DNA of 64,000 nt from Candidatus Omnitrophota bacterium (GCA_903884815.1 CAISGE010000002.1:109955-173954); one strand, 5' to 3'; counted from the stretch's first letter, positions 11,593 to 36,350 are shown. Notes: generated by a model from the letters alone, not told the origin. Translations and numbers: made by a program.

Positions 11593-11620
11593 GGGTTTGT
11601 TTTCCTTTCTGATGTCACGG

Positions 11621-22565: not shown

Positions 22566-23099
22566 ATGAAATGTCCTCGCACAGGCGCCAACATGAAAGA
22601 AGTCGAGATCAACAAGGTTAAGGTGGATATTTCCGAGGGATGTGGCGGCGTCTGGTTCGACAATCTGGAATTTGAAAAATTCGATGAGGCTCATGAAAAC
22701 GCGGGCGACAAACTGGTTGATTTGATGGCGTCTTTCGCGAAGGGGAAGGGACCGGTCGACCTGGACAAACGGATCAACTGCCCCCGTTGTGCGGACACGG
22801 TGCTGATGCGGCATTTTGAAAGTCCCCTCCGGAAGATCCAGATCGATCAATGTCCGGGATGCGGCGGGATCTGGTTGGATGCCGGGGAGCTGAAGGATTT
22901 CCGGAAGCTTTTTCCGACGGAAGCGGACCGGAAAAAAGCCGGCGACGAATTTATCGCGAAGTCCATCATGCCCATCCTTGAGGCCAAAGCCAAAGAGGGC
23001 CAGGAAGAGCTCGAAAAGGCCCGGCGTGTTGCCCACATGTTCCGCTTCATTTGTCCGAGTTATTACATCCCCGGGAAACAAGCAGGCGCCGCTTTTTAA
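22566..23099 (+). CDS. Double zinc-ribbon (zf-TFIIB-like) protein; hypothetical.
   Basis: Two CPxC...C..CGG(V/I)W(F/L)D modules (CPRTGANM...CGGVWFD and CPRCADTV...CPGCGGIWLD). RBS AAAGGAGA. Confidence 0.55.
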   Translation: MKCPRTGANMKEVEINKVKVDISEGCGGVWFDNLEFEKFDEAHENAGDKLVDLMASFAKGKGPVDLDKRINCPRCADTVLMRHFESPLRKIQIDQCPGCGGIWLDAGELKDFRKLFPTEADRKKAGDEFIAKSIMPILEAKAKEGQEELEKARRVAHMFRFICPSYYIPGKQAGAAF

Positions 23100-23155
23100 A
23101 AACAGCTGGGGGCCTGCGGATGACGGCTCCCTTTTCCTTTGATGGACGAGGGGAA

Positions 23156-23746
23156 ATGCAAAGAAAAACAATAGCGTTCCTTTTTCTCGCCCTCCTGCTT
23201 TATCCCGCCACACTGCTTTTCTCCGAATCACCCCTGACTGTCACCCGCGTGATCGACAGTGATACCCTGGAACTTTCGAGCGGCGAAACCGTGCGCCTGA
23301 TCGGGATCGATTGTGATGAGCAGGAATACAGTCCAGCAGACGCGGCGTATCTTAACCGTGGCAAGAAGTGGGAACGCGGCCCAGATTCACTAAAACACGC
23401 CAAGGAAGCGGCGGAGTTCACTCGCAAGCTGGTGGAAGGCAAGAAGGTCAGACTAGATTACGATGTCCAGCGGAGGGATAAATACGGGCGATTGTTAGCC
23501 TATGTTTATGTCTTGGTATGCAACAACTGCGATGTTCTTAGGGCGGCAGAATATGAATATCTGGATATGATAGATCCGGACGAAAGCAATGCTGTTTGTA
23601 TCTTTCTTAATGCAACCCTCATCAAGGCTGGCTACGCCCAAGTCGTGACCGTCCCGCCGAGTGTGAAGTACGCTGACCTGTTCGTGAAGCTGGAGAAGGA
23701 AGCCAGGGGGAGGAAAAGGGGGTTGCGAAGTGAGGGTAAAATTTGA
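23156..23746 (+). CDS. Secreted thermonuclease (staphylococcal nuclease, SNase)-like protein, copy 1.
   Basis: Signal peptide. SNase motifs RVIDSDTLEL, TVRLIGIDCDE and DKYGRLLAYVYV. The C-terminal tail is conserved with the other copies (KAGYAQ...VKY..LFVKLEKEAR). Confidence 0.75.
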   Translation: MQRKTIAFLFLALLLYPATLLFSESPLTVTRVIDSDTLELSSGETVRLIGIDCDEQEYSPADAAYLNRGKKWERGPDSLKHAKEAAEFTRKLVEGKKVRLDYDVQRRDKYGRLLAYVYVLVCNNCDVLRAAEYEYLDMIDPDESNAVCIFLNATLIKAGYAQVVTVPPSVKYADLFVKLEKEARGRKRGLRSEGKI

Positions 23747-24861
23747 GCGAAGAACATATGCGGAAATACAAGTATGACAACTTCGGCAATGATCTTGCTT
23801 CTGAGCTCGGGCAGAAAGTTCGATGCACCCGATGTTTGGGGCCGTCCAGCATCAGGAAACAGGATGGCGGCGCCGTGAATAAAGAGCTTCCGTATGACAT
23901 GTATATACATTGGCAGTTATTAAGGGAGTGTAATTTTTCATGTGAATATTGTTATTCTTCCCCGCAGACCGGCCCGGCAAAAAAAGCGGATGTTGCGCGG
24001 ATAGTTCACCGGTTAGATGCTTTTGGGAAGACATCTCTTATTTCATTTACAGGAGGGGAACCTTTTCTTGTTCCGAATTTTATCGAGCTGGTGAAGGAAT
24101 TAACAAAAAGACATTATGTTCGCATCGATACGAATCTCAGCCTTTTAGCAGCTTGCGAGAGCTTTATCAAGGAGGTTGATCCGGAAAGGATTTGCGAGAT
24201 AGTTTTTTCGATTCATGCCGGAGAAAGGGAGAAACGCAAGATGCCGCTGCGGGACTTGTGCGCTCTTGTAAGAAAGTTCCGAGATCGCGGATTTATCATG
24301 ACGGGAAATTATGTCGTCTACCCCACGCTGTTGAAGAGGTTCTCGGATGACATGAAAATATTTCGAGAGAATGCGGTCAGTGTTTTGCCTAGTTTGTTTG
24401 TCGGAAGACAGGGCGGTAAAAATTATCCAATGCATGCCGGCAGGTTAGCTTACGAGCAAAACGCCTTTGATTTGATCTCAGGGATAAATCCAAAGGTAAA
24501 TCTCGTTTTAAACAGGAGCGTCGGCGAATTGTGCCCGGCGGGGGTAAATTCATTTTTTGTTAATTCCGATTATAAGGTTTTTGCCTGTGCGGCTATCCGG
24601 AGGGAAATAGGCGACTTTTGGGGGGATTGGAAGATGTTTCCCAAGGTCGTGCGGTGTCCGATGGAGTATTGTTACTGCCCATTTAATAAACCTTTTGTGG
24701 TGGGTCAGAGGACTCAAATACAGACTTCATTGCTGAAAGACGCTCTCCATCGGAACGGCGAGGCATCCGTTTGGCAATCTAGATTCTTAACAAGGGATAT
24801 GCGGAGAGGGGTAAAAAGGTTTGTCGAGCGCCTTGTTGAAAAGTTCTCGCTGCGTGAATAG
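23743..24861 (+). CDS. Radical SAM enzyme with a C-terminal SPASM/twitch-like Cys cluster, copy 1.
   Basis: CNFSCEYC is a CxxxCxxC radical SAM motif. The C-terminus carries CPAG...C...CPMEYCYCP. The track start is a TTG at 23743 overlapping the SNase stop, and an alternative ATG lies at 23758. Confidence 0.75.
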   Translation: MSEEHMRKYKYDNFGNDLASELGQKVRCTRCLGPSSIRKQDGGAVNKELPYDMYIHWQLLRECNFSCEYCYSSPQTGPAKKADVARIVHRLDAFGKTSLISFTGGEPFLVPNFIELVKELTKRHYVRIDTNLSLLAACESFIKEVDPERICEIVFSIHAGEREKRKMPLRDLCALVRKFRDRGFIMTGNYVVYPTLLKRFSDDMKIFRENAVSVLPSLFVGRQGGKNYPMHAGRLAYEQNAFDLISGINPKVNLVLNRSVGELCPAGVNSFFVNSDYKVFACAAIRREIGDFWGDWKMFPKVVRCPMEYCYCPFNKPFVVGQRTQIQTSLLKDALHRNGEASVWQSRFLTRDMRRGVKRFVERLVEKFSLRE

Positions 24862-24910
24862 GCTTTAAATTGCAGAAGGAAGCACGGGAACAGAAAAGGG
24901 GGATTTGGAA

Positions 24911-25384
24911 ATGAAGAAGTACTTGTTCGCGATCGCGGCATTGTGCCTGGCGGCCACCACCATTGCGGCGGAGAGTCGCGCATCAAACGGATCAACAGAG
25001 ACCCTTAAGAAGGTTAGATCGGTTCTGCCTCAAGGCTGGTTCATTGTCAAAGTTGTGAAAGGGCCGTCTTCTCCGAACCATTACGCGGAGGATGCACAAG
25101 AGGCTGTTGTTGTTTTGATCAGCAATCCATCAATCGATGCGAAAATGAAAAGTAAAGCCAAGATCGGGCCGTACGAGCTCTATCTGATGGACCTTCGCTA
25201 TAAAGAGAAAAGCCATACAGTCTCAGCTCTGCATCCGGAGGTCGCGGAACGGCCTGCGCGATACCTCGGCAGAAGTGAGCATTTTAAAATTTATTGGGGT
25301 GGGGGTATGTGGGGACTCGATCCTGTTGAAAAGAAACTTGAGGCTGACGTCAAACAAGCGTTGAGCATTGCTACGGAAAAGTGA
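24911..25384 (+). CDS. Secreted hypothetical protein.
   Basis: Signal MKKYLFAIAALCLAATTIAAESRA. Preceded by the recurring junction element at 24878-24914. Confidence 0.5.
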   Translation: MKKYLFAIAALCLAATTIAAESRASNGSTETLKKVRSVLPQGWFIVKVVKGPSSPNHYAEDAQEAVVVLISNPSIDAKMKSKAKIGPYELYLMDLRYKEKSHTVSALHPEVAERPARYLGRSEHFKIYWGGGMWGLDPVEKKLEADVKQALSIATEK

Positions 25385-25396
25385 GGAGTCGTTAAA

Positions 25397-26356
25397 ATGA
25401 GGAAGCTATTATTCGTGATCACGGCGCTGTGCCTAGCGGCCTCGGCGGGGTATGGGGAGGAATCTTCCGGGAATTTCCCGTTCAGCAAGATCGAGAGGAG
25501 GGGCGGCGTGGTCCGCCTGCAACTTCCTGACCATGGATTCCGGTGGCTCATAGGTGTAAATACGGAAAACCGCGCGAAGCTCAGAAGGTCGAACTATTCG
25601 GAGGTCGTGGAGTTGAAGACCCGCGGGATCTTGGGTGGGGACAAGCTTTATATGATTGAAAAGCATCAACAGATCGTCATCGAACCTATTTTTCAGGGCA
25701 AAGCCCTTTTTTTAAAGCAAACCGTTAAAACGGATTTGCGTAGCATGGGCGGCTCCGTAAAGATTGAAAAATCCTTTATTCCCGTGCCGGACGAGGGAAA
25801 GCAGCTGCAAGCGAGCCTGGCGCCGGAGGGTTCTTTGGTTGTGAAACGCGTGATCGACGGTGATACCCTGGAACTTTCGAGCGGCGAAACTGTGCGTCTG
25901 ATCGGAATCGATTGTGAGGAAAACGAGTACAGTCCTGCCGAGGCGGTCTATCTTAACCAAGGAAAAAAATGGAAGCGCGCGCCGGGATCTCTGATGCACG
26001 CTAAGGCGTCGGCAGATTTCGCCCGCAAGCTGGTCGAGGGCAAGCAGGTTCGGTTGGAGTACGACGTTCAGAAGAAGGATAAGTCCGGCAGGACGCTGGC
26101 GTATGTTTATCTATTGCCAAGGCAGGCAGAGAATCATGACAAGACCGTTCTTGAATTCGGACGTTTTTTGGATGATGGTTATGGCGGGCCGGGAAAATCG
26201 AGCCTCGTCTTTATCAACGCCACCCTCATCAAGGCTGGCTACGCCCAAGGCATGACCTCCTCCAAGGATGCCATCCCGCCGAATGTGAAGTATCAGGAGT
26301 TGTTTGTGAAGCTGGAGCAGGAAGCCAGAGAAAATAAAAGGGGGTTGTGGAAATGA
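25397..26356 (+). CDS. Secreted SNase-like nuclease with an N-terminal extra domain, copy 2.
   Basis: Signal MRKLLFVITALCLAASAGYG. The C-terminal SNase domain (RVIDGDTLELSSGETVRLIGIDCEENEY...) is nearly identical at the DNA level to copy 1 (25852-25940 versus 23260-23345). Ends ...EARENKRGLWK*. Confidence 0.75.
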   Translation: MRKLLFVITALCLAASAGYGEESSGNFPFSKIERRGGVVRLQLPDHGFRWLIGVNTENRAKLRRSNYSEVVELKTRGILGGDKLYMIEKHQQIVIEPIFQGKALFLKQTVKTDLRSMGGSVKIEKSFIPVPDEGKQLQASLAPEGSLVVKRVIDGDTLELSSGETVRLIGIDCEENEYSPAEAVYLNQGKKWKRAPGSLMHAKASADFARKLVEGKQVRLEYDVQKKDKSGRTLAYVYLLPRQAENHDKTVLEFGRFLDDGYGGPGKSSLVFINATLIKAGYAQGMTSSKDAIPPNVKYQELFVKLEQEARENKRGLWK

Positions 26357-26691
26357 AAAAACAGAAAAATCAGAACGTGGTAACACCAAGCAACGTCCTT
26401 TCTTCTTACGACCCAGTTAAAGTTGCCTTGGCAGAAGGAAATATATACGGAGCAGGCGCTTCGGGGAGATTCAAGAAGAGTTGGGTGACAAGGCTGGGTT
26501 TTATTCTTCTGGCGCTACCGTTTCTTGGCTACGCTATCTTTATGTTTCCTATGATTTATAAGAGCTTGTCTGAAGCCATCAACGTCAAAACAACTGAGGT
26601 TACACTGGCGGTCGGCATTGGAGGCATGCTTCTCGACTTATCCTGCCTTTGGCTGGGACTTAAATTAATCGCAGGTGCGTTAAAGAAATAA
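26353..26691 (+). CDS. Small two-TM membrane protein; hypothetical.
   Basis: An ATGA overlap with the SNase-2 stop, inside the junction element. The hydrophobic helices suggest a membrane protein. Confidence 0.5.
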   Translation: MKKQKNQNVVTPSNVLSSYDPVKVALAEGNIYGAGASGRFKKSWVTRLGFILLALPFLGYAIFMFPMIYKSLSEAINVKTTEVTLAVGIGGMLLDLSCLWLGLKLIAGALKK

Positions 26692-26703
26692 TAGGAGGGG
26701 GTT

Positions 26704-27153
26704 GTGGAAAAGAAAAGGTCAATAGGTGTAATGGTCATTTCTATAGTTAATTTGCTGGTAGGTTTGCCCGTGCTTTTTTTATGCCTCCGTTTTTTCATTT
26801 CAAATTATGAAAAGTTCATATCGCAGCTAGGTGATTTGTCTTTTTTCAGCGTTTTCGTTTTTATACTCTATGTTCTTATGGCGCTAACAGCTGTTTGTTT
26901 CCCCGTCCTATTTAGTTATGCGGGAATTTCAACTTATAATCTCAAGCCTGGTTCCGTAGCCCTCAATAAGGCTATCGCTAAATGGACGATTGTTTTCGTG
27001 GGGGGAGGCGAAGTTATTTTTGCGGTTACGCTTGCACCGCATCTAATGATTAGAATGGAATTCAGCCTTCTTGTGACGCTTGCCGCCGTGCTGTATTTTA
27101 TGTGGGTGCAAATGTATTTCACGCATCCCAAAGTTAAGGAGCAGTTCAAGTAA
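26704..27153 (+). CDS. Four-TM membrane protein, paralog family A (C-terminus ...P.VK.QFK).
   Basis: GTG start after GGGGGTTGTGGAAAAG. The C-terminal THPKVKEQFK is shared with the 30507 and 34426 genes. Confidence 0.5.
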   Translation: MEKKRSIGVMVISIVNLLVGLPVLFLCLRFFISNYEKFISQLGDLSFFSVFVFILYVLMALTAVCFPVLFSYAGISTYNLKPGSVALNKAIAKWTIVFVGGGEVIFAVTLAPHLMIRMEFSLLVTLAAVLYFMWVQMYFTHPKVKEQFK

Positions 27154-27214
27154 GGACCCCGAACCGCAAGGGGCCGCGGCAGGGAGCGCGGGAACAGAAA
27201 AGGAGGTTGTGGAG

Positions 27215-27496
27215 ATGAAAAGGATATTTGTAATAATATTAACATTAAGTATCTTGCTTGGAATTTCTGACGTTGCGTTTGCGAAGCACCATCATTCTAA
27301 AAAAGCAGAGGCCCCGAATAACAAAGAGGATCAAGGGAGGAAGGTGACGTGCCTCGTCAAGGGCGTCCCGCAAATGGTGAGGACAGAAGGCGTTTGTAAG
27401 GATTTTAACGGCACCGTGGTGCCCGAAAAAACTCCTCCAGGAGCAACGGCGGTGCCGGAGAAAAAAATAACGGCGCAAAAAATAGAAAGCAAATAG
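27215..27496 (+). CDS. Small secreted protein (93 aa) with a His-rich segment and 2 Cys; hypothetical.
   Basis: Signal MKRIFVIILTLSILLGISDVAFA. Preceded by the junction element GGGAACAGAAAAGGAGGTTGTGGAGATG. Confidence 0.45.
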   Translation: MKRIFVIILTLSILLGISDVAFAKHHHSKKAEAPNNKEDQGRKVTCLVKGVPQMVRTEGVCKDFNGTVVPEKTPPGATAVPEKKITAQKIESK

Positions 27497-27537
27497 ATCC
27501 CTCGTTATGAATTGAAAATGATCAGAAAGGCAACTCT

Positions 27538-27741
27538 ATGACACGCATAATCTTTTTGGCAGCACTGGTTTTGACCTTCAGCGGTTGTTGCACTTCTCAG
27601 TCGGCGGCGGACTTGCAAATCAGCCAGGACGAGGCGAAGCTGACACGGATGTACCGCGAGTGCATTGAGAAGAATCTTGGCCATGGGGAAGCCATGAGGA
27701 AGGATTGCGAGCCGATCCTTGGCCCCTATGTAAGTCATTAG
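27538..27741 (+). CDS. Small lipoprotein (67 aa) ending ...KDCEPILGPYVSH.
   Basis: Lipobox LTFSGC. The 3' end is repeated at 29254-29310. Confidence 0.4.
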   Translation: MTRIIFLAALVLTFSGCCTSQSAADLQISQDEAKLTRMYRECIEKNLGHGEAMRKDCEPILGPYVSH

Positions 27742-27838
27742 AGGCGGGGGCGACGAAGGCGTTTAACCGGTTGGAGGGTGATGTTGAGTTCGGGGAGATG
27801 ATGGAGGATTAAAAGAGTAAGAAAAAAAGGAGGGTTCT

Positions 27839-28006
27839 ATGAACGGAAGTGATATGACAATGATCGTAACGTATATCGTCGGGAGTCTCCTTGTTTTTCT
27901 CGTTTGCAGAGAAATCGTGTGCTGGTATTTTAAAATGAATGAAGTCACGAAGTTGCTTCGGGAGATCAAGGAATGTTTGAAAAGCCATCCCTCCCTTAAG
28001 TCTTGA
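27839..28006 (+). CDS. 55-aa single-TM peptide (MNGSDMTMIVTYIVGSLLVFLVCREIVCWYFKMNEVTKLLREIKECLKSHPSLKS); hypothetical.
   Basis: A strong RBS AAAAAGGAGGG 7 nt upstream. Below the 60-aa cutoff of the ORF track. Confidence 0.35.
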   Translation: MNGSDMTMIVTYIVGSLLVFLVCREIVCWYFKMNEVTKLLREIKECLKSHPSLKS

Positions 28007-28090
28007 TGGGGGGGGGGAAGAGGCTGCTTCGGGATGCGGGCGTGCATCGTAGTTTATTAAAATGATGAGGCAGCTAAAGGAGAAGGCAAA

Positions 28091-28708
28091 ATGAAGCTAA
28101 AAACAATTTCTATTTTAGGATTGTTACTGGCGCTCAACATGGGCACCGTTTGGGCGGGACAGTATGTTTTTTCCGGGTATGGGAAACGAGTCTTGTTTGG
28201 TTCGATCGACAAATCTCGCATGTGTACCGTGAGCTTCTCTGTGGATGAGACGTTGCCATCGAGTGAAATTGTTGCGACCCTTCGGTTTACGAATACAGGC
28301 AATGCTCCGATGAAAGGCGATCCATTCTTCTCTCAAACAACGCAAATTGTTTCCAAGGATGAGAAGACCTATGAGGTGCCATGGGCGACTGGAATGGTGG
28401 AGTTGAAAGACGGAAGTAAATACGAGATTCCCGGCACAGTGACTCCCGAAAAGGTTGAAGATGTCGTGAAAAATCATCCCGAACTAAGAAAGCCGTCACC
28501 TTTTGAGACATTAGTGGCTCCTCTGGAGGATGACTCGGAGGAGGCTTCTAAAAACAAAGAAGTTCGACTTATTAACCCGGGCGGCATAGCGGAGAAGGTG
28601 CTGTATATCAAAGATCCGCTTATTCGGGCTGTGATAACATCAAATAATGTGAAGAGTGTCATTTTAAATTGCGGCATGGGAAAATTCGTTCTTACCCAAC
28701 AGTCTTAA
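28091..28708 (+). CDS. Secreted hypothetical protein (205 aa).
   Basis: Signal MKLKTISILGLLLALNMGTVWA. RBS AAAGGAGAAGG. Confidence 0.5.
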   Translation: MKLKTISILGLLLALNMGTVWAGQYVFSGYGKRVLFGSIDKSRMCTVSFSVDETLPSSEIVATLRFTNTGNAPMKGDPFFSQTTQIVSKDEKTYEVPWATGMVELKDGSKYEIPGTVTPEKVEDVVKNHPELRKPSPFETLVAPLEDDSEEASKNKEVRLINPGGIAEKVLYIKDPLIRAVITSNNVKSVILNCGMGKFVLTQQS

Positions 28709-28791
28709 AACATGAGATGAAAACGGGCGTTTATCAAGAGGATGCGGCGGATTAAAGGAAGAAATAACAGGAGCCGTTGGGGAAGGACATA

Positions 28792-28920
28792 ATGCGCTAT
28801 GCCATTGGCCTGATAAGTAAGTTGGATGGTCCCACGATAATGTTTCTGGGCATTTTCTCCCTTACTATCATTGTCATTTGCATGGTTGGGATATCTTTTC
28901 CAAAGAAGCGGGGAAAATAG
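28792..28920 (+). CDS. 42-aa hydrophobic peptide; hypothetical.
   Basis: RBS GGGGAAGGA upstream. A single TM. Very short, so the confidence is low. Confidence 0.2.
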   Translation: MRYAIGLISKLDGPTIMFLGIFSLTIIVICMVGISFPKKRGK

Positions 28921-28950
28921 GAGAGGGAGAACCTACGAAGGAGAGGATAT

Positions 28951-29253
28951 ATGCTGTTCGGATGTTTCGTGACCAGAGCTGAGGATCAAAGCGGTGCTAT
29001 GATGCGGATAATTCTGTTGTTATCTGGGATTTTGTTTTTGGCGGGCTGTGCGACATCGACATCCCAAACTGCTTTTGTGGATGCCGGGGGGCATGCGTGC
29101 ACGAAAGCCTTTAAAAAAGTCGCGCCTTTTGGAATTGCGATCAGCGAAAGCGTCGAATGCTCGGAGATTGCTACTTTTGCTCCCGCCGAATCGTCCAAGC
29201 CCTCATCCCCGAGGAAAGCAAAACAAAAGAAACATTGGTTCTGGCCATTTTAG
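28951..29253 (+). CDS. Lipoprotein (100 aa). Its stop is immediately followed, in frame, by a remnant EDKDCEPVLGP*.
   Basis: RBS AGGAGAGGA. Lipobox LFLAGC. The in-frame remnant after the stop matches the 27538 gene's C-terminus. Confidence 0.4.
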   Translation: MLFGCFVTRAEDQSGAMMRIILLLSGILFLAGCATSTSQTAFVDAGGHACTKAFKKVAPFGIAISESVECSEIATFAPAESSKPSSPRKAKQKKHWFWPF

Positions 29254-29340
29254 GAGGACAAGGATTGCGAGCCGGTCCTTGGCCCGTAGGGAAGTCATGA
29301 GAGGCAGAGTCGGGGAGCCGTAGAACCAAGCGAGGGGCGT

Positions 29341-30393
29341 ATGAACGCGATCGCGAAGGACGTTTATCAGAAGCTGGTGCGGGAGATCGGCGAGATCTAT
29401 GAGGGTGCGCGTAGGACCCTGGTCGAGGCCTATTGGAAGATCGGACAGAGGATCGTTCGGGTCGAACAGCAGGGCGCGGTCAAAGCCGTTTACGGTTCCG
29501 GTCTCCTTCAAAAAATCTCCGAAGAGCTTACGCGAAAGTGCGGTCCTGGATTTTCCGAATCGAACCTCCGGCGCATGCGGCAGTTCTACCTGAGTTACCC
29601 AATTCGTGCGGCGCCGCACGAATTGACCTGGACCCAATACTCGGAGCTTCTCCCCGTCGGGAATGCCGCAGTTCGGAAACGGCTTGAAAAGCAGGCCCTG
29701 AGGGAAGGACTTTCTCACAAAGCAATCCGCAAGCTTGTCCAGTCCGAACGCGTTCGCGAAGAAGCTCCTTCCCCCTCCGCAAGTCCCGAGTCCCGAGCGA
29801 CGAGTCCCGATCTTTTAATCCCCCTCCGCGGAAAGCTTCACACGCATCAGATCGCCCTCAAAGGGGGCGCGCTTTATCTCGACCTGGGCTTCCGTATTTA
29901 CCGCCCGCTGACGCCAGACCAAGCTGCGGCGGGGTTCAAAGAAGGCGATATTGTCAACGTGGAACCCCTTCAACCTACGCGGTTGAAAAGGTCGGAGTCT
30001 GGCTCCGGAGCCCTTTATACGTATGAAGCGGCGCTTGACCACATCTATGACGGCGACACGCAGTGGTATTTTATTTTTACGGGGCGCGGAGAAGGGCCGG
30101 GAAATAAAAGTGCCGGCTTTATGAAAAACGACAAGCTCCGGCTCCGCGGGATCGACTGTCCGGAGCTTAAGTACGCGGCGGGGAAGGCGGCGAAGCGCTT
30201 CGTGGTGGAGCTTTTCAGCCGGGCGGTGGGGATGACCGTCACGACGACGAAGCCCGACAAGTACGACCGCTACCTTTCCGATATCTTTCTCCGGATGAAG
30301 GACGGGGCGGAGCTTTTCCTCAATAACGAACTTCTCGCGGCCGGCCACGCCTGCTTGTACAGCGATCCCAAGCCCAAGGATTGGGAAGATTAA
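29341..30393 (+). CDS. Fusion protein with an N-terminal YhcG/DUF1016-like domain and a C-terminal SNase-like nuclease domain (no signal peptide).
   Basis: N-terminus LVEAYWKIGQRIVRVEQQGA...GFSESNLRRMRQFYLSYP is DUF1016_N-like. C-terminus HIYDGDTQWYF...LRLRGIDCPELKY...KYDRYLSDIF is SNase-like. Confidence 0.65.
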   Translation: MNAIAKDVYQKLVREIGEIYEGARRTLVEAYWKIGQRIVRVEQQGAVKAVYGSGLLQKISEELTRKCGPGFSESNLRRMRQFYLSYPIRAAPHELTWTQYSELLPVGNAAVRKRLEKQALREGLSHKAIRKLVQSERVREEAPSPSASPESRATSPDLLIPLRGKLHTHQIALKGGALYLDLGFRIYRPLTPDQAAAGFKEGDIVNVEPLQPTRLKRSESGSGALYTYEAALDHIYDGDTQWYFIFTGRGEGPGNKSAGFMKNDKLRLRGIDCPELKYAAGKAAKRFVVELFSRAVGMTVTTTKPDKYDRYLSDIFLRMKDGAELFLNNELLAAGHACLYSDPKPKDWED

Positions 30394-30435
30394 CGCGGGA
30401 AAAAAGAAAATGGGGTTAGGTCTTGTTTTCTTTGG

Positions 30436-30510
30436 GTCGTAAAGTATCTGGAGCTGTTCGTGAAGCTGGAGAAGGAAGCGAGAGAAAACGAAAGGGGGCT
30501 TTGGAAATGA
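30436..30510 (+). repeat. Orphan SNase 3'-end fragment (encodes VVKYLELFVKLEKEARENERGLWK*) carrying the RBS and start of the downstream gene.
   Basis: About 85% DNA identity to 26285-26356, the 3' end of SNase copy 2. No upstream SNase body. Confidence 0.6.
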
Positions 30511-30971
30511 AAACAGGAGCTGTGGTATTTATTAAAAAAGGAGAACAGAAAAAGAAACTACCCAAGGGTGTGAAAATAATTGGCATTTATCACAAGTGGT
30601 TTGGTGGAATTTTGGGTTTCTTCTCATCGCTTGCATATCTTTTTGAGCTTTTTTTTCCAAATTTTCTTCCTCAGTTTATTGGGAGGATGCCGCAACACGG
30701 GGAGAACATATTTTATGTAAAAATTTACTGTATCCTTAGTCTAATACTTTCACCTATCTGCTATATTTTGGGAAGCCAACTTTTGCAATTCAAGGAAAAA
30801 GGAAGGAAAGGCATTTTATATCTTACCGTTTTTTACATATTTCTTACTCCTTGGCTTAATGTGTTAGCGTATAACATAAAATCACCAAGCAGAATCATTT
30901 TGTCAGTATTGTTGCAGTCGTTGGTCATTTGCTATCTTAGCCGTCCCAACGTCAAAGCCCAGTTCCAATAA
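30507..30971 (+). CDS. Multi-pass membrane protein, paralog family A (C-terminus RPNVKAQFQ).
   Basis: An ATGA overlap with the orphan fragment's stop. The C-terminus is shared with 26704 and 34426. Confidence 0.5.
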   Translation: MKTGAVVFIKKGEQKKKLPKGVKIIGIYHKWFGGILGFFSSLAYLFELFFPNFLPQFIGRMPQHGENIFYVKIYCILSLILSPICYILGSQLLQFKEKGRKGILYLTVFYIFLTPWLNVLAYNIKSPSRIILSVLLQSLVICYLSRPNVKAQFQ

Positions 30972-31029
30972 GGACCCCGAACTACATGGGTACGTGGCGG
31001 GGAGCACGAGAACAGAAAAGGGGGTTGTG

Positions 31030-31674
31030 ATGGAGATGAATGATGCGGAAAAGTTGAAGGGAACTGGCGGGTGGTTGGGGCTATACATTCTCTTGGGATT
31101 TTTGGACCTTATATCGGTTCCGGTTATTTGTTTGTTTCCAACCGTTGAAACTGTTTCGCGTGCAGTTCTGATCATATGTAATGCAATAGCCTGCTTTTTG
31201 CTCATAAAGAAAAATAGTAATGCAGTGAAATGGACACGGCTTTTTCTATGGAGCCAAATGGGCGTGGATGCTGCTTTTTTCCTTTTCCATGCGCCTGATT
31301 TTTTATGGACATGGTCTTCCGGCAGGAATTACTACGAAGCTTTTTTTGCAATTAGAGGAACCCTGGGGGGTATTTTTTCGGCATGGATCTGGTTATCATA
31401 TTTTGAAAAATCAGAACGAGTAAAATTGAACTTTCCCGACTCTTTGCTCCCCGCACCCAGTAACCAATCGGTACGATTATGGAATTGGGTGGGTGTGATT
31501 GTGATATTAATTTACCTCCCACTCACAGTTTATGGGCAGGTATTAAAGGCCCAAATAAAACCGATCATAAGGGAATCTATAAAAAAAGGCGGGACATCTG
31601 TGGGCAGCCTGCTGAGAAATCCATTGGCATTACAGAAAGAGGCTCTCCGGAAATTGTGGGAATCGAAACATTGA
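31030..31674 (+). CDS. Multi-pass membrane protein (215 aa), possibly DUF2569-like.
   Basis: N-terminal GTGGWLGLYILLGF and 5-6 hydrophobic helices. Preceded by a conserved spacer GGACCCCGAAC...GAACAGAAAAGGGGGTTGTG. Confidence 0.45.
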   Translation: MEMNDAEKLKGTGGWLGLYILLGFLDLISVPVICLFPTVETVSRAVLIICNAIACFLLIKKNSNAVKWTRLFLWSQMGVDAAFFLFHAPDFLWTWSSGRNYYEAFFAIRGTLGGIFSAWIWLSYFEKSERVKLNFPDSLLPAPSNQSVRLWNWVGVIVILIYLPLTVYGQVLKAQIKPIIRESIKKGGTSVGSLLRNPLALQKEALRKLWESKH

Positions 31675-31681
31675 GAAAACT

Positions 31682-31861
31682 ATGACCGAAGACCCCAGCA
31701 AGAATAAACCCACCAATCTCGACATCCCCGGATCTGAGCCGGAAGCGAATTCTGAGGCGAAGGTCACTTTGCTGAAGCGCGGACTTTTGATCCTGATCTT
31801 TTTCGGCATAGGCATGCTCATCGCGACCGCCTGGTATATGACGAAGCGGTATTGGCGTTGA
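31682..31861 (+). CDS. 59-aa peptide with an acidic N-terminus and a C-terminal TM (…LLKRGLLILIFFGIGMLIATAWYMTKRYWR).
   Basis: Intact ORF. A frameshifted copy lies at 35486-35664. Confidence 0.35.
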   Translation: MTEDPSKNKPTNLDIPGSEPEANSEAKVTLLKRGLLILIFFGIGMLIATAWYMTKRYWR

Positions 31862-31927
31862 AAATGCAAGCACGGGGACAGACAAGGGGATTGTGGAAAT
31901 GAAGCTATTTTTCAAAAGGAGAATGAC

Positions 31928-32989
31928 TTGAGTCATTCCTGCCGCGCCATTTCTTTTTTGCCGATCACCGCTGTTCTTGAAATGACTTATCGGTGTAATC
32001 ACCAGTGCCAGTTCTGTTCCTGTCCTTGGATGACGGAGGAGCATGTCTCCATGAAGGGGAAAGAGCTTTCCACGGTTCAATGGAAGGCCGTTCTTGATCT
32101 TTTGGCGCGGCAGGGCGTTCACCAAATCTGTTTTACGGGCGGTGAAGCGCTATTACGCCCCGATCTTCCCGAGATCATGGCTTACGCTTCACGGCTGAAG
32201 GTTAAAGTGATCAAGGATAAAGACGGTCAACTGGCGGAACACATAGCGTCCCCCAAACTATACCTTTTATCGAATGGTGCGTTGGTCGACGATGCTATTC
32301 TCGACCTCTGCAAGAGAGATGACATCCAGCTGAGCATCAGCATGCCCGGGCTGCGCACTTTTGCCGAATTGACCGGCGGGGGTGACGTGAACAAAATACT
32401 GCGTATCTTCGAGAAAGCCCGGGAGCGCGGCCTTTCAACGGTGGTGGGCATCACTGTGACAAAGAAGAATCTTTTCGAACTCTACGAAACGATTTCAGCG
32501 GCCTTTCTTGCGGGGGCGACCCAGCTTTTATTAAATCGATTTCTTGAAGGCGGTCGCGGGCGCCGCTACGCCCGGGAACTTGCTTTAAGCCGCGCAGAAT
32601 TGATCGAAATGCTCGATGTCGCGGAACAAGCGCTTCATGATGCGGGCCGTTATGGCTCGGTGGGGACCGAGCTGCCGCTGTGCTTGTTCACCTCTGGTAA
32701 ATATAAGAGATTAGAGGTTTCAACGGGATGTTCTGCGGCCAAGGGTTTTTTTGTGATCGGTCCATCGGGAAAAGTGAGGGTTTGCAATCATTCGCCGGTG
32801 GAGCTGGCGCACTATTCGGAGATCGAAACCTTGAAAATGGATCCGTATTGGATGAAATTCGCCCGGAGTGATTACTTACCCGCCATGTGTGCGGGGTGTG
32901 AGGATGCCGGTCGTTGTGCCGGTGGATGCCGGGAAGCCGCGCATATTGTCGCGGGCGCGATCAACGCGCCGGACGCTCTGCTCATTTAA
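31928..32989 (+). CDS. Radical SAM/SPASM-domain enzyme (peptide or protein-modifying maturase, or anSME-like), copy 2.
   Basis: CNHQCQFC radical SAM motif and a full SPASM motif CAGCEDAGRCAGGC (CX2CX5CX3C), plus further upstream Cys. TTG start. Confidence 0.8.
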   Translation: MSHSCRAISFLPITAVLEMTYRCNHQCQFCSCPWMTEEHVSMKGKELSTVQWKAVLDLLARQGVHQICFTGGEALLRPDLPEIMAYASRLKVKVIKDKDGQLAEHIASPKLYLLSNGALVDDAILDLCKRDDIQLSISMPGLRTFAELTGGGDVNKILRIFEKARERGLSTVVGITVTKKNLFELYETISAAFLAGATQLLLNRFLEGGRGRRYARELALSRAELIEMLDVAEQALHDAGRYGSVGTELPLCLFTSGKYKRLEVSTGCSAAKGFFVIGPSGKVRVCNHSPVELAHYSEIETLKMDPYWMKFARSDYLPAMCAGCEDAGRCAGGCREAAHIVAGAINAPDALLI

Positions 32990-33003
32990 AGAAAGGAGAC
33001 AGG

Positions 33004-33645
33004 ATGCTTTTTATTCAAATCGCTTTGGTCACGATGCTTCTTCTTGGGCTCACGGTTTTATCCGCTTGCACAAAGCAGGCAAATCAATCAGATGCCAAGA
33101 GTAAGCAGGCGGTTACGTCCGAGCAAATCCAAGCCATGTCGCGTGAGGATATACAAAGAGCCTTGAAAAGGATCGAATCGAGTCATACGCCAACGTCGCA
33201 AAAGATGGGCGCGATGTGTTATGAACCAGTAGCTCCCGCATCTGGATACTTCGAATATGTTTGCCCCGTTGACGGCGATAAAACAGTTTTTTCGCTAAAA
33301 TCCAATGCATTTGATCAGGCAACCCATTTGCAGGAGCTTAGAGGCTCGGTCGAAAGATTGCGTCCGCTTGCTAAGGGGATCGCCCTATCACTTGATGAAG
33401 GCAGGCTTTGCGCCAAGTGTCATCCGGCGCTTCCTGATGCGGAAAGATTTGTTTCCCTGGTTCTTCAATATGCCGATGGAAGAACGGTCCGTACGGATCG
33501 GGTGACTCCTGAGGACCTCAAATATCTGACGGGGTTCTTTTCCGGCGGATTAAGCTATTTATCTCAAGGTCCGGATCAGGAGCCCCTGAAGCCTAAAGTG
33601 GCTCGCCTCAAGGAGCTGTTGGGTGAGAAAGGAGTAGGCACATGA
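33004..33645 (+). CDS. Lipoprotein (213 aa) with 4 Cys, including a CAKCH (CXXCH) motif.
   Basis: RBS AAAGGAGA. Lipobox LTVLSAC. Paralogous to 33642-34262. Confidence 0.5.
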   Translation: MLFIQIALVTMLLLGLTVLSACTKQANQSDAKSKQAVTSEQIQAMSREDIQRALKRIESSHTPTSQKMGAMCYEPVAPASGYFEYVCPVDGDKTVFSLKSNAFDQATHLQELRGSVERLRPLAKGIALSLDEGRLCAKCHPALPDAERFVSLVLQYADGRTVRTDRVTPEDLKYLTGFFSGGLSYLSQGPDQEPLKPKVARLKELLGEKGVGT

Positions 33646-34262
33646 TGTTCTTGCAAATTGTTTTTGTCGTGATGCTTGTTCTGGGGCTCACGGTTTTATC
33701 GGCTCGTGCGCAGCAGGCGGATCCGCCCGACACCAAGAGTAAGCAGGCGGTGACTTCCGAGAAAATCCAAGCCATGTCGCGTGAGGATATACAAAAAGCC
33801 TTGAAAAGGATCGAGTCGAGTAATCCGCCGGCGAAGAAGATGGGCGCGATGTGTTATAAAATGGGTGAAACACCTGAAAACTTTGAATATGTTTGCCCCG
33901 TTGACGGGGAGAAAACCGTCTATTCACGAGCCCAAGCATCTAAACAGGCAGTAGATTTGCAGGGGCTCAGAAGTTCGATCGAAAAATTGCGCCCGTTTGC
34001 AAAGGGGATCTCCCTATCGCTCGATGAGAGCAAACTCTGCGCCAAGTGTAATCCGGCACTCCCCGATGCGGAAAGATACGTTTCCCTTGTCCTTCAATAT
34101 GCCGACGGGAGAACGGTCCGCACAGACAGGGTGACTCCCGAAGATCTGCGTTATTTGACAGGGTTCTTTTCTGGAGGATTAAGCTATGAAACTTTTAATG
34201 AGGGGCAGGACCCCCTCAAGCCTGTTGAAGGTCGGTTGAAACAGCTTTTGGGGGAGCAGTAA
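33642..34262 (+). CDS. Secreted paralog of the 33004 lipoprotein (CAKCN in place of CAKCH).
   Basis: An ATGA overlap. Long stretches of near-identical DNA with the upstream paralog. Confidence 0.5.
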   Translation: MMFLQIVFVVMLVLGLTVLSARAQQADPPDTKSKQAVTSEKIQAMSREDIQKALKRIESSNPPAKKMGAMCYKMGETPENFEYVCPVDGEKTVYSRAQASKQAVDLQGLRSSIEKLRPFAKGISLSLDESKLCAKCNPALPDAERYVSLVLQYADGRTVRTDRVTPEDLRYLTGFFSGGLSYETFNEGQDPLKPVEGRLKQLLGEQ

Positions 34263-34353
34263 TTCCGCCTTCATAAAATGTCCGCTGTTTTTGGGAAGGT
34301 CCGTATGCGGAAGAGCGGGAACGGAAAAGAAGGCTAGTGCCTGTTTTCTAAGG

Positions 34354-34428
34354 GTCGTAAAGTATCTGGAGCTGTTTCGTGAAGCTGGAGAAGGAAGCGA
34401 GAGAAAATAAAAGGGGGTTGTGGAGATG
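34354..34428 (+). repeat. Second orphan SNase 3'-end fragment (frameshifted) carrying the start of the downstream gene.
   Basis: Near-identical to 30436-30510 apart from a 1-nt insertion (gctgtttcgtg versus gctgttcgtg). Confidence 0.6.
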
Positions 34429-34911
34429 AGAAAAATATCAGCAGGATTGAGGGGGACAGGATGGCTGTTGGTATTATATGGATTGATTTCTTTTTGCGGG
34501 CTTGCGGTTAGCTTCTTTTTAGGTGCTCTCCTTAGTATACGCCAAGCACCAATGTCGGAGTCACAATACCGTACATCTGTGGACCTTGTTACGAGTGTTT
34601 TTATGCCTCTTCCGAATAAATTTGTCGCAATAGGAATGCTTATAGGTGGGATAGGGGTATTAAGGCTAAAGTCATGGGGAAGATGGCTTGTGGTAGGAGC
34701 TATCCTTACCGATTTTATTCAAAAATCATTCTGGATGTACGCCTCTTCACGATTCAACCTAGATTTTATTTTTCAAACCGAATTGACTGTTTTTGTATTT
34801 TATTCTTCTCTTTTCTTGGAGTTGCTGGTTCTTTTGTATTTTATGCGCCCCAATGTAAAGATACAGTTCAAACAAGGAACCACGGGAACAGAAAAGGGGG
34901 TTGTGGTGTGA
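34426..34911 (+). CDS. Multi-pass membrane protein, paralog family A (…RPNVKIQFK then GTTGTEKGVVV encoded by the junction element).
   Basis: N-terminal GTGWLLVLYG. The C-terminal family motif. Its 3' end runs through the GGGAACAGAAAAGGGGGTTGTGG element. Confidence 0.5.
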   Translation: MRKISAGLRGTGWLLVLYGLISFCGLAVSFFLGALLSIRQAPMSESQYRTSVDLVTSVFMPLPNKFVAIGMLIGGIGVLRLKSWGRWLVVGAILTDFIQKSFWMYASSRFNLDFIFQTELTVFVFYSSLFLELLVLLYFMRPNVKIQFKQGTTGTEKGVVV

Positions 34912-35489
34912 ATGCTAAGGTTAGAGCTTTCATTGGCGGGGCACTCGGAGTTGTCGTAATTTTCATAATAACATTCAGTTCTATTGGATACGGGGAGGAA
35001 ACAAAAAGGGCGTACTATGCGAATGGGAAGTTGCAGGGCGAGATGATTTATAAGAACGAAAGTAATGAGTCTCTGTCTAAGGAATATTACGAAAGCGGGG
35101 AATTACAAGGCGAGACGCTTTTCAAGAACGGAATGCTTGAAGGGCCGTATAAACTTTATTACAGAAACGGACATGTGCGGGAAGATGGATCTTATAAAAA
35201 TGGCTATCGTGAAGGGCCGTATAAAGAATATTACGAAAGCGGGCAATTGAAAGAGGCGAAAGCTTATGTGAATGGAAAACCAGAGGGGCCGAGTGAAGAG
35301 TATTACCCGAGCGGGCAATTGCATGTCGAGAGAAATTTCAAGAACGGAATGCAAGAGGGACTGATGAAGTCTTATTACGAAAGCGGGCAATTGCAATCCG
35401 AGGTATCTTACGAGAAGGGAGAGCCTGGCGAGGGAACGATAAAGCTCTATGGTCTAGACGGAAAATTAATGTCCGTGAGAAAACCATGA
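34908..35489 (+). CDS. YwqK/MORN-variant repeat protein with an N-terminal TM anchor.
   Basis: GTG start overlapping the upstream stop. About 8 repeats of the form Y(K/E)NG.(L/R)EGPYKEYYESGQL. Confidence 0.55.
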   Translation: MNAKVRAFIGGALGVVVIFIITFSSIGYGEETKRAYYANGKLQGEMIYKNESNESLSKEYYESGELQGETLFKNGMLEGPYKLYYRNGHVREDGSYKNGYREGPYKEYYESGQLKEAKAYVNGKPEGPSEEYYPSGQLHVERNFKNGMQEGLMKSYYESGQLQSEVSYEKGEPGEGTIKLYGLDGKLMSVRKP

Positions 35490-35664
35490 CTCCAGACCCT
35501 ATCAAAAAGCAACTCTCCGACCCCGCGATCCCAGGATCTGAGACGGAAGCGAATTCTGAGGCGAAGGTCACTCTGCTGAAAGCGGACTTTCGATCCTGAT
35601 CTTCCTCGGCATAGGTATGTTGATTGCAACTGCCTGGTTGATGGCGAAACGGTATTGGCGTTGA
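35486..35664 (+). pseudogene. Frameshifted copy of the 59-aa peptide gene (31682-31861).
   Basis: About 85% DNA identity to 31712-31861, with a 1-nt deletion producing a premature stop (…KVTLLKADFRS*). Confidence 0.4.
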
Positions 35665-35763
35665 AGATTGAATTACGGGAACAAAAAATGCGTCCCCGTG
35701 GGACGCCGTTCCGTCCCGAGGTTATTCAGAGTTTATCGTGGTGTCTCTAAAATGGAGGTGAGT

Positions 35764-36246
35764 ATGAAAATGTTTCTTTGGGCAGTCGTTTTGGGTGCGT
35801 TGTTCACACAGATGCCGACTTGCGTTTATTGCGAAACGAATAGCCTTATCGGAGAGTGGGAAGTCGTGTCGCAAGTTCCTTCGCAAAAGGAGCTGTTATC
35901 ATACACAAAGAAACCTGCGGGATTCGAGGGCGTGAATAATGATGACGTCGTTGTCCCCGAGACTAAACAGACGGTAACCATTACAGAAAACAATCTGATA
36001 AATAAAACGGTCGGAGAAGGCGTAAACATAAACGATGAAGAACCGTATAAATTAGAAGGCGATAAAATCATCATGATCCCGCCTGAGGGCGAAGCTGCGG
36101 AAAGTCCGTTCTATGTTTATGCCAAGCAGTTTATTCCGGCTTATACGTCTTTCAAGTTTGATGGGGAGAATCTCATACTGACGACGAGCGAAATCCCGGG
36201 ATATCAAAATAAAACAATAACCAAGGTGTTAAAACGCATTAAATAA
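35764..36246 (+). CDS. Secreted hypothetical protein.
   Basis: Signal MKMFLWAVVLGALFTQMPTCVYC. RBS GGAGGTG. The start is ambiguous between 35752, 35764 and 35770. Confidence 0.45.
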   Translation: MKMFLWAVVLGALFTQMPTCVYCETNSLIGEWEVVSQVPSQKELLSYTKKPAGFEGVNNDDVVVPETKQTVTITENNLINKTVGEGVNINDEEPYKLEGDKIIMIPPEGEAAESPFYVYAKQFIPAYTSFKFDGENLILTTSEIPGYQNKTITKVLKRIK

Positions 36247-36350
36247 GCACCAGTTTTTATTTTACAGCCCGGCGGTTCTGCGGCCAGTTGGAAAGACCGG
36301 ACGCAGTCTCGTTTTCAGGAAGGACGACTCAACGGCGGGAAGGATGAAAG

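Follow-up and report, generated by a model that had tools for sequence, protein, structure and literature searches.

Copies of a secreted-nuclease gene's 3′ end precede unrelated genes in a 13-kb array of Candidatus Omnitrophota

Introduction

Why are unrelated genes of a single array preceded by copies of one short sequence? The question is raised by a stretch of 64,000 nucleotides (nt) from a Candidatus Omnitrophota bacterium (GCA_903884815.1, CAISGE010000002.1:109955-173954), hereafter the window, in which a 13-kb array of ~24 tightly packed genes, all on one strand, occupies 23.1-36.7 kb. The array consists of three SNase-family nuclease genes, two radical SAM enzyme genes and ~18 genes for small exported or membrane proteins. 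It is flanked by glmS (20609/20702-22546) and a Zn-ribbon gene on one side and by the gene of an OYE-type flavin reductase (36829-37938) on the other side, and every gene from 22566 to 36695 lies on the + strand. A first-pass annotation had noticed conserved junction sequences that recur at the gene boundaries. These sequences are readily recovered as repeat families D1, D4 and D5 and as nine nhmmer copies; what that annotation had missed is that the junction is the coding sequence of an SNase C-terminus together with its stop codon. We propose, with about as much confidence as doubt, that the locus is a lineage-specific accessory array in Candidatus Omnitrophota that was built by recombination downstream of a secreted-SNase anchor gene.

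The junctions are 3′ ends of SNase genes

The junction repeat corresponds to the 3′ end of the SNase gene, which encodes ...FVKLEKEARE(N/Q)KRGLWK before the stop codon. The reference copy J3 (26285-26359) encodes VKYQELFVKLEQEARENKRGLWK followed by a stop codon, and every junction copy, when read in the frame of its TGG codon, is an SNase C-terminus plus stop. The same nucleotides hold a translation-initiation signal: the AAA-AGG-GGG codons of the junction form a Shine-Dalgarno sequence (AAAAGGGGG) in a purine-rich leader, and the SNase stop codon overlaps the start codon of the next gene (ATGA) in TGGAAATGA.

The array contains 12 junction copies, all in the orientation of the genes, which align to the last 19-86 nt of the SNase genes. 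Nine copies are clear (nhmmer E <= 1e-4), and three are degenerate (J3b, 26684-26709; J5a, 30399-30417; J8, 34303-34329), J5a and J8 being recognized by alignment to the SNase gene tails. Intact SNase genes end only in J1 (23649-23725, itself degenerate and the 3′ end of SNase1 by the same alignment) and J3, and the remaining copies are orphans that stand before unrelated genes. The motif is confined to 23.7-34.9 kb of the window. A degenerate pattern of the junction finds seven matches in the window, all within 24.9-34.9 kb, compared with 0.03 expected.

By sequence, two classes of copies can be told apart. Class N (..GCGAGAGAAAATAAAAGG.., ENK) comprises the SNase2 gene, whose last ~72 nt are J3 and serve as the class reference, as well as the remnants J5 (30439-30510, 72 nt, repeats D1 and D13), which reads EARENERGLWK, and J9 (34357-34429, 73 nt with a 1-nt insertion), which reads FVKLEKEARENKRGLWR. 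The class-N remnants measure 26, 72 and 73 nt. Class Q (..GCACGGGAACAGAAAAGG.., EQK) comprises five orphans, namely J2 (24877-24914; nhmmer E 7e-9; GFKLQKEAREQKRGIWK), J4 (27181-27218, 38 nt; E 1e-8; QGAREQKRRLWR), J6 (30997-31036; E 2e-7; RGAREQKRGL), J7 (31868-31902; nhmmer and alignment; KMQARGQTRGLWK) and J10 (34875-34906; E 7e-9; KEPREQKRGLWC). The readings given for J2, J4, J5, J6, J7 and J9 each run into the stop codon, and J2 agrees at 34 of 38 positions with the final 38 nt of a class-Q SNase gene.

The junction also supplies start codons. Its ATG is the start codon of the downstream gene in J2 (24911, g04), J3, J4 (27215, g08), J5 (30507, memA2) and J9 (34426, memA3). In J3b, which is identical at 22 of 26 positions and belongs to repeat D5, and in J6 and J10, the downstream gene starts within ~8 nt of the position of the junction ATG (GTG 26704 of memA1, ATG 31030 of g16 and GTG 34908 of the MORN protein gene, respectively, the last in a GTGA overlap). 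The ATG of J7 (31899) opens a 10-codon mini open reading frame (ORF), MKLFFKRRMT (31899-31931), whose stop codon overlaps the TTG start of the radical SAM gene rSAM2. This overlap suggests a possible termination-reinitiation coupling. The consensus secondary structure of the junction alignment contains no predicted base pairs, and neither dyad symmetry nor an inverted-repeat architecture was found in the junction. The motif has no match in viral contigs and occurs at at least five loci in metagenome contigs, a count that is a lower bound because the scan missed the window's own public JGI contig (Ga0114951_10000059), which has the pattern. No description of SNase-tail junction arrays was found in the literature searched.

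How could the tail of a nuclease gene come to precede so many other genes? In the accretion that we propose, the last ~38-75 nt of the SNase genes of this clade would act as a purine-rich leader free of structure, in which a strong Shine-Dalgarno sequence is combined with an ATG that overlaps the stop codon, and a gene placed behind an SNase gene would be translated from this ready-made initiation region. Modules that consist of an SNase tail and one or more genes would be acquired, duplicated, truncated, nested and exchanged by recombination, with unrelated genes that each carry the same SNase-tail leader as the outcome. The tails would be kept because they serve the downstream genes as translation-initiation regions. 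In addition, the tails, which are themselves direct repeats with 80-100% identity, would provide portable homology for more duplication, deletion and swapping. We infer this mode of recombination, the physiological role considered below and the co-transcription of the array, which is probably read as one long transcript that continues from glmS and g01. In a scan of the array, promoter- and terminator-like sites are not enriched over shuffled sequence, which is compatible with read-through transcription.

Junctions and partner genes in relatives

The array itself is found repeatedly. The exact SNase2 protein and the same array occur on 19 contigs from independent assemblies, and the array is therefore not an assembly artefact; the four loci whose DNA was compared are 99.97-99.99% identical to the window over 11.6-17.4 kb. 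Beyond this species, the named sources of homologs of the array genes (SNase genes and g14) are mostly Candidatus Omnitrophota or Omnitrophica. A profile scan for SNase in GTDB species representatives, among which the window's own species is absent, detects 58 loci, the best of which are from Omnitrophota at 51-54% identity. Most of these loci have a single tail, that of the SNase gene itself.

The gene that follows the SNase gene varies. The SNase stop codon is overlapped by a lipoprotein gene at locus L008, by a Zn-ribbon gene at L012 and L067, by a DUF2007 gene at L073 and by a 138-aa gene at L074, and in the window it is followed by a gene for a radical SAM enzyme or a protein with two transmembrane (TM) segments; the partner differs among L006, L008, L012, L067, L073 and L074. 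A small Zn-ribbon protein with the motif M(E/G)(V/I)K(I/S)(C/K)..CP.CG..NNP...C(W)KC is encoded beside the SNase genes of L008 (1400-1963), L012 (1298-1945) and L067 (10081-10362).

Orphan tails are present in other Omnitrophota as well. L067 carries a DUF1016_N-SNase gene, an XRE gene and an 80-nt orphan SNase remnant whose ATG starts the Zn-ribbon gene; a second orphan (GAAGCACGGGAACAGAAAAGGGGGTTG), which is identical to J2 at 27 of 27 nt, precedes the next gene, after which the contig ends. The gene after this second junction is not significantly similar to g11 of the window. L011 consists of an SNase gene, a 120-aa gene, a split orphan tail, a membrane protein gene and, further on, a DUF1016_N-SNase gene. 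In L015, a homolog of g08 (69-70% aa identity) lies 200 nt after the SNase gene behind a ~31-nt tail, and L015 and the window are homologous at the nucleotide level from within the tail, ~25 nt ahead of the ATG of g08, to 2-3 nt past its stop codon. Gene content similar to that of the window, in a different order, is found on the P0002 contig, which holds the closest g14 homolog (61% aa identity): an SNase gene, a pyrophosphatase gene, a second SNase gene that overlaps the next gene by 10 nt, three small genes including a MORN_2 gene, two further small genes, a DUF1016_N-SNase fusion and two more genes.

The sister species (L077/L078) allows the SNase slot to be compared against a conserved background. 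The flank is 81% identical at the nucleotide level, and the order TPR-MerR-sigma70-glycoamylase-glmS-g01 is kept up to the SNase gene, with aa identities of 91% for glmS, 100% for sigma-70 and 82% for g01. The SNase in the same slot is 62% identical in aa sequence and has a synonymous divergence (dS) of 2.4, which is saturated, versus 0.8-1.05 in the flank. Judged by this divergence, the SNase has been replaced between the sister species, which occur together in samples 3300009502 and 3300022555. Some 130 nt past the sister's SNase stop codon comes a group II intron (Rfam RF02005, 84.5 bits), at 7960-8144 of L077 and at the end of L078, and both contigs end inside it. In the more distant relative L079, which has the nearest OYE homolog on a long contig (glmS 74% and OYE 76% aa identity), glmS and the OYE gene are 9 kb apart, and their interval (857-10000) holds CheW, CheR, response regulator, redoxin, PilZ, RNase D and other genes and no SNase gene. 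The interval between the two conserved anchors is thus variable. A variable array had been suggested from the window alone; this holds in that gene order is not conserved in relatives, so that a rigidly conserved operon is not seen, and it does not hold within the species, where no variation is observed.

Patchwork structure of the array

The array is a patchwork of modules. A block composed of an SNase tail, a memA gene, a ~25-60-nt spacer and another tail occurs three times (26285-27221, 30406-31039 and 34324-34915). The block ends, including the non-coding remnants J5 and J9, are conserved at 77-90% nucleotide identity, and the centres are unalignable. The segment made of the memA1 3′ end, spacer and junction recurs as repeat D10 with 77% identity over 97 nt, the J9 block is ~90% identical to the J5 block over 92 nt, and J5 and J9 share a truncation breakpoint (D13). 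The memA products are integral membrane proteins by hydropathy: memA1 (26704-27153) has four TM segments, memA2 (30507-30971) and memA3 (34426-34911) are multi-TM proteins, and the C-terminus of memA3 reads into J10. They had been taken for a paralogous family, which overstates their relationship. Only the last ~40 aa are alike (z 5-13, versus z 1-5 for the whole proteins), with a shared C-terminal motif Y(F/L)xxP(K/N)VKxQF(K/Q), and BLASTP detects no similarity among the three proteins.

Other parts of the array have different histories. The gene g06 (26353-26691), which encodes a 112-aa protein with two TM segments, is bracketed by the tails J3 and J3b, and the alignment splits a junction around the gene; g06 therefore looks like an insertion into a junction. 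Seven genes, g08 to g14, lie between J4 and J5a without tails. The tandem genes lipoB1 (33004-33645) and lipoB2 (33642-34262), whose exported products have four conserved Cys residues, are 70% identical in aa sequence, as the first-pass pairing of these putative lipoproteins implied. Their ratio of nonsynonymous to synonymous substitution (dN/dS) is ~0.28, and that of g08 is ~0.2; dN/dS values of 0.2-0.3 indicate that g08 and the lipoB genes are maintained, real genes. The 59-aa gene g17 (31682-31861), whose product has a C-terminal TM segment by hydropathy, and its frameshifted copy (35486-35665) are likewise a true pair, with 82% nucleotide identity (to 31672-31885; repeats D8/D9) and with the N- and C-terminal halves of the copy in different frames. 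The proposed kinship of the lipoproteins g09 and g13 is narrower than claimed, as it is restricted to the signal peptide and a 53-nt 3′ repeat (D12). The secreted protein g04 (24911-25384), which has a hydrophobic N-terminus, resembles the N-terminal domain of SNase2 (25397-25660; 27% identity over 98 aa, BLASTP E 8e-5), and this domain thus occurs both free-standing and fused to a nuclease. With these qualifications, the repeats and paralogy reported for the array are reproduced.

Accretion at the anchor gene and its alternatives

Several observations weigh against accretion by recombination at the anchor gene. The array lacks a class-Q SNase gene that could have donated the class-Q copies. 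Five independent class-Q orphans (J2, the J4 type, J7 and the copies of L011 and L067) all begin ~35-38 nt before the stop codon, a uniform start that random truncation explains no better than a discrete element or a site-specific crossover does. Selection over a leader of the size of a ribosome footprint is a further fitting explanation, given that the ribosome-binding footprint matches the ~38-nt extent of class Q. Orphan copies are found in only 3 of the 58 SNase loci (L067, L011 and L015), and multi-copy arrays are found in few genomes. The contigs of the species, including the four near-identical loci, show no structural variation that would point to active or ongoing cassette exchange. 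Moreover, the term accessory envelope array is a description and not a function.

Gene remnants can also be left by displacement. The orphan immunity arrays of the Vibrio cholerae type VI secretion system (T6SS) have been modelled as acquired modules that leave stubs (PMC5361080), and a corresponding scenario for our locus is that an incoming SNase gene and its partner replace the resident SNase gene and leave the old partner with an SNase 3′ stub. Such sequential displacement of effector-partner modules is unlikely here, although much of the anatomy resembles that of T6SS, contact-dependent inhibition (CDI) and Rhs orphan arrays. Both have same-strand genes behind a conserved gene, 3′ stubs of the upstream gene before orphans (72-73, 38, 26 and 80 nt here), an anchor that is replaced between relatives while the flanks are conserved, and growth by horizontal acquisition and homology-facilitated recombination. 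The conserved ends and hypervariable centres of the memA genes and the presence of a MORN_2 repeat protein, a family that includes the YwqK immunity protein, also speak for displacement. However, cognate partners should be homologous, whereas the genes behind near-identical stubs encode unrelated proteins (radical SAM, MORN, multi-TM, secreted and DUF2569-like). The anchor is a small Sec-type SNase, the SNases of 196-319 aa have no delivery or trafficking domain, and proteins that span the membrane several times are unlikely to inhibit a soluble DNase. Defence and immunity models gave no match apart from the generic PDC-S02 domain at the N-terminus of g14, the array has no linked secretion apparatus, and the extreme-3′ stub also provides the next gene with its ribosome-binding site and start codon. 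The idea of a polymorphic effector and partner-gene array, raised in the first-pass annotation, is accordingly reduced to an analogy: the SNases have a signal peptide and, as their only domain, SNase, and their partners are mutually unrelated, so that the locus does not classify as a polymorphic toxin system.

The uniform class-Q copies raise the alternative of an integron-like site-specific system, in which the ~38-nt junction is an attachment site for a recombinase encoded elsewhere and insertion at the SNase 3′ end duplicates the site. We regard this as improbable. An undescribed Omnitrophota cassette-capture system that inserts precisely at the SNase stop codon, at a site that gives each captured gene a start codon and a ribosome-binding site, would amount to an integron analogue that lacks attC hairpins and a linked integrase and uses an enzyme encoded elsewhere or host-mediated recombination; it seems no less improbable. 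The length and 5′ boundary of the class-Q orphans are indeed uniform in three genomes, orphan copies of distantly related Omnitrophota share all 27 nt, the tightly packed, co-oriented genes apparently have no promoters of their own, one copy lies on either side of g06 as in a target duplication, and homology of the g08 cassette starts in the site and ends at the stop codon. On the other hand, neither the island genes nor the 21 ORFs of >=180 aa searched elsewhere in the 64-kb window gave an integrase, transposase or invertase domain, a search that left out a few long ORFs, including one of 3361 aa, and outside ORFs of <180 aa. The junction has no dyad symmetry, attC-like R″/L″-L′/R′ architecture or predicted structure; the class-N remnants of 26, 72 and 80 nt follow what truncation predicts rather than a fixed crossover; the array is invariant across the species' contigs; and the motif was not found in viral contigs. 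An ordinary old operon with convergent strong ribosome-binding sites or ancient tandem duplicates is disfavoured and very improbable. In its favour, all contigs of the species have one and the same gene order, the ORFs searched include no mobility genes, and the junction contains a canonical Shine-Dalgarno sequence and start codon, but the similarity extends over 35-75 nt with the SNase frame and stop preserved, far beyond a Shine-Dalgarno sequence, and the seven matches exceed the 0.03 expected by chance. Furthermore, relatives differ in content, and the genes that follow the junctions cannot have arisen by duplication and divergence of a single gene, since they are not related to each other. 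The least probable account, which we consider very remote, is a biosynthetic locus of the ribosomally synthesized and post-translationally modified peptide (RiPP) type, in which the 59-aa peptide or the Cys-containing lipoB proteins would be substrates of the radical SAM/SPASM enzyme(s) and the remaining genes would be used for export or immunity. In favour of this account, a SPASM motif is present in rSAM2, which can be aligned along its whole length with peptide maturases, the 59-aa gene lies 66 nt upstream of it and two exported proteins with four Cys residues are encoded directly downstream. Nevertheless, all maturase matches are far below curated cut-offs, the 59-aa product contains no Cys and ends in a TM helix and KRYWR, and a junction copy and the mini-ORF lie between its gene and rSAM2. 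The second 59-aa copy is a frameshifted pseudogene remote from any maturase, rSAM1 comes after an SNase gene and not a peptide gene, and an RRE/PqqD domain, a peptidase or an ABC exporter was not found in the island by Pfam. The earlier suggestion of a RiPP-like maturation locus is dropped on these grounds.

How does accretion at a secreted-SNase anchor compare with known architectures? The array joins the known remnant-marked or repeat-delimited gene arrays and is not a new category. Integrons and clusters of attC sites lacking an integrase (CALINs) similarly consist of promoterless, co-oriented cassettes separated by a recurring site, and the g08 cassette is shared by two genomes and bounded at the site. 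The site here, in contrast, lies 5′ of the gene, gives it the ribosome-binding site and ATG and shows homology to a protein-coding gene's end, and neither IntI nor attC was found. An integron or CALIN was rejected as a candidate: a scan by attC regular expression and folding gave one trivial 134-nt match that spans coding sequence, and IntI was not found in the ORFs searched. The rAID-1 clusters of Bacteroidales are >10 kb long, consist of co-oriented small genes of low G+C with repetitive intergenic sequence and have been called integron-like (10.1101/471110); these traits recur here and have also been counted in favour of displacement. rAID-1 clusters are defined by a 5′ XerD-like recombinase and homology to immunity genes, unlike our array, in which no recombinase was found in the ORFs searched, defence or named-family homology is lacking (PADLOC, NCBIfam) and the repeat is the tail of a coding gene; an assignment to rAID-1 was not retained. 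Integrative elements can also accrete in tandem at the 3′ ends of target genes, as in tRNA-gene islands and cis-mobilizable (CIME-type) elements. As in such islands, 3′-end direct repeats delimit successive inserts in our array and the first copy resides on the intact gene, whereas our inserts are only 0.35-3.3 kb long, the repeats are unequal, no integrases were detected and the target is a nuclease gene.

What might the array do for the cell? The cargo consists mostly of envelope or secreted proteins, together with two extracellular nucleases, two radical SAM enzymes and one cytoplasmic DUF1016_N-SNase fusion. Among the earlier suggestions, a secreted-nuclease locus with variable accessory cassettes fits best, given that the junctions are 3′ relics of nuclease genes and that different genes stand behind the same junction in relatives. 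We infer DNA scavenging together with cell-surface or interaction functions as the likely role, and the extracellular SNases plausibly degrade environmental or prey DNA. Omnitrophota are thought to live as predators or parasites (PMC10066038), and a DNA-degrading role of the SNases would fit this lifestyle. If accretion at the anchor gene is correct, the last stretch of an ordinary enzyme gene has been turned into a movable expression leader and a handle for recombination, and accessory genes are assembled and shuffled in this way in a poorly known uncultured phylum. The array would then be a mechanistically distinct addition to cassette-array architectures such as integrons, rAID clusters and orphan toxin/immunity arrays, and the ~38-mer would provide a simple tag for fast-evolving sets of surface and secreted genes in Omnitrophota genomes. 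The ~18 uncharacterised exported proteins, the two orphan radical SAM enzymes and the replacement of a PD-(D/E)XK domain by SNase in g14 are candidates for interaction or defence functions.

Nucleases, radical SAM enzymes and exported proteins

Three thermonuclease-like genes had been predicted, and all three are supported by Pfam. SNase1 (23156-23746; E 2e-16), the anchor gene of the array, encodes a 196-aa Sec-type protein with an N-terminal hydrophobic segment, and SNase2 (25397-26356; E 1e-14) encodes a secreted 319-aa protein in which an N-terminal domain precedes the SNase domain. The two share 61% aa identity. The third SNase domain is that of g14 (29341-30393; E 2.6e-6). The three domains score 60.7, 55.3 and 28.3 bits, respectively, against a cut-off of 21 for PF00565, and none reaches the cut-off of the NCBIfam SNase equivalogs NucI and EcnA.

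g14 is a cytoplasmic fusion of a DUF1016_N domain (Pfam E 5e-25, 88.7 bits) to an SNase domain, which takes the place of the usual C-terminal PD-(D/E)XK domain. Its N-terminal domain alone matches PADLOC PDC-S02 (E 4e-32), and on this similarity g14 would belong to a candidate-defence-like family. Homologs of g14 number 810 at E <= 1e-10, their named sources being mostly Omnitrophota, and DUF1016_N-SNase fusions are encoded in L010, L011, L067-L072, L082 and L083. In five of six further genomes, the g14 homolog stands alone among toxin-antitoxin, defence-like, polysaccharide or housekeeping genes, and the sixth context is the similar array of P0002. No match to the junction or to other island genes was found near g14 homologs in the first three contexts looked up (loci L068-L072). 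g14 thus resembles the PDC-S02/DUF1016 (YhcG-like) candidate defence genes in its N-terminal domain and in the company of its homologs, and differs from them in its SNase domain. Because most of the genomes compared carry the g14 homolog on its own, away from any junction, g14 does not belong specifically to the junction system. The possibility that g14 is the dedicated nuclease or recombinase of the array was rejected, given the five genomes with neither junctions nor SNase arrays nearby.

Both enzymes annotated as radical SAM/SPASM proteins are radical SAM proteins by Pfam (rSAM1, 23743-24861, E 3e-16; rSAM2, 31928-32989, E 9e-22), and the SPASM assignment is supported for rSAM2 only, in which CX13GX4C...CX2CX5CX3C is visible in the sequence. 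rSAM2 aligns over its full length to the PqqE, mycofactocin, GeoRSP, PapB and DynA maturases below their curated cut-offs and is a member of no named equivalog in NCBIfam. rSAM1 has a Cys-rich C-terminus without a SPASM match, no named NCBIfam family above its curated cut-off, and PDB and PADLOC matches to the generic radical SAM core only. For both enzymes, the named maturase families score far below cut-off, for example 85 bits versus 381 for PqqE. A pVip/viperin identity of the two proteins was disregarded, as the matches cover only the generic core.

The first-pass count of more than 15 genes for short membrane, lipo- or secreted proteins is borne out, as 18 of the 24 island proteins have a signal peptide, anchor or TM segments in a crude hydropathy and lipobox scan; SNase2 and the protein encoded at 28091 also look signal-peptide-like by eye. 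The 93-aa secreted protein g08 (27215-27496) forms, with its leader, the cassette that is also present in the Omnitrophota metagenome-assembled genome of L015. It is followed by the lipoprotein g09 (27538-27741), the TM protein g10 (27839-28006), the 205-aa secreted protein g11 (28091-28708; signal peptide by eye), the TM protein g12 (28777-28920) and the lipoprotein g13 (28951-29253), ORFs that were typed by hydropathy and lipobox; the genes of this run are called on public contigs too, and no junction copies lie between them. g16 (31030-31674) is a DUF2569-like membrane protein, with a weak Pfam match below the cut-off (E 4e-4). g22 (34908-35489) is a membrane-anchored or secreted protein with six MORN_2 repeats (Pfam E 5e-31; repeat family D7). 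The exported protein g24 (35668-36246), whose real start is probably an internal Met, and g25 (36351-36695), which has an N-terminal anchor by hydropathy, complete the array.

Searches of Pfam, NCBIfam, PADLOC and PDB gave no informative homologs for the small exported proteins, the lipoB pair or either radical SAM enzyme. In particular, g04 has no Pfam, NCBIfam or PDB match, g09-g13 and g24/g25 have no family matches, and PDB sequence searches with g04, g11 and lipoB gave nothing significant. The lipoB proteins also match no family or structure, and the AlphaFold2 model of lipoB1 is poor, with a predicted local distance difference test score (pLDDT) of 44. Residues 143-184 of lipoB are weakly similar to residues 37-78 of ubiquitin and end in GG, a similarity that loses significance when a single ubiquitin unit is used for the comparison. 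The genes lipoB1 (33469-33486), lipoB2 (34098-34115) and g25 (36555-36572) have in common a Y(A/S)DGRT motif, which corresponds to repeat family D15.

Locus setting and base composition

The array is set apart from its surroundings in composition. The G+C content of the island is 0.488 versus 0.542 in the flanks, with the profile falling from ~0.54-0.55 to 0.46-0.51, and GC skew is strongly positive across the island. g25 lies at the distal end of the low-GC block. At the proximal side, g01 (22566-23099), which encodes two Zn_ribbon_TFIIB domains (Pfam PF13453 E 2e-23), belongs to the conserved flank outside the variable array. The reported tight packing is evident, with ATGA/GTGA overlaps between array genes and gaps of 7-100 nt. 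A Tn7-like element at attTn7 was considered for the position next to glmS and rejected, since no transposase domains were found in the ORFs searched and the placement of g01 after glmS is conserved in the sister species. Rfam detects no RNA family in the window; its matches are the group II intron of the sister contigs and a tRNA in L011.

L004 and L003, two long contigs of this strain in public data, break at window positions 30638, inside memA2, and 35638, inside the duplicated g17 copy. These breaks coincide with hypervariable and repeated parts of the array, and population heterogeneity could be their cause. Proteins with an ORF6N domain are encoded near the loci of both the window (11071-11628, - strand) and L011 (5920-6516, - strand). 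Outside the array, the window contains a giant ORF of 3361 aa (49350-59435, + strand), and very long proteins are a reported trait of Omnitrophota (10.64898/2026.06.07.730766).

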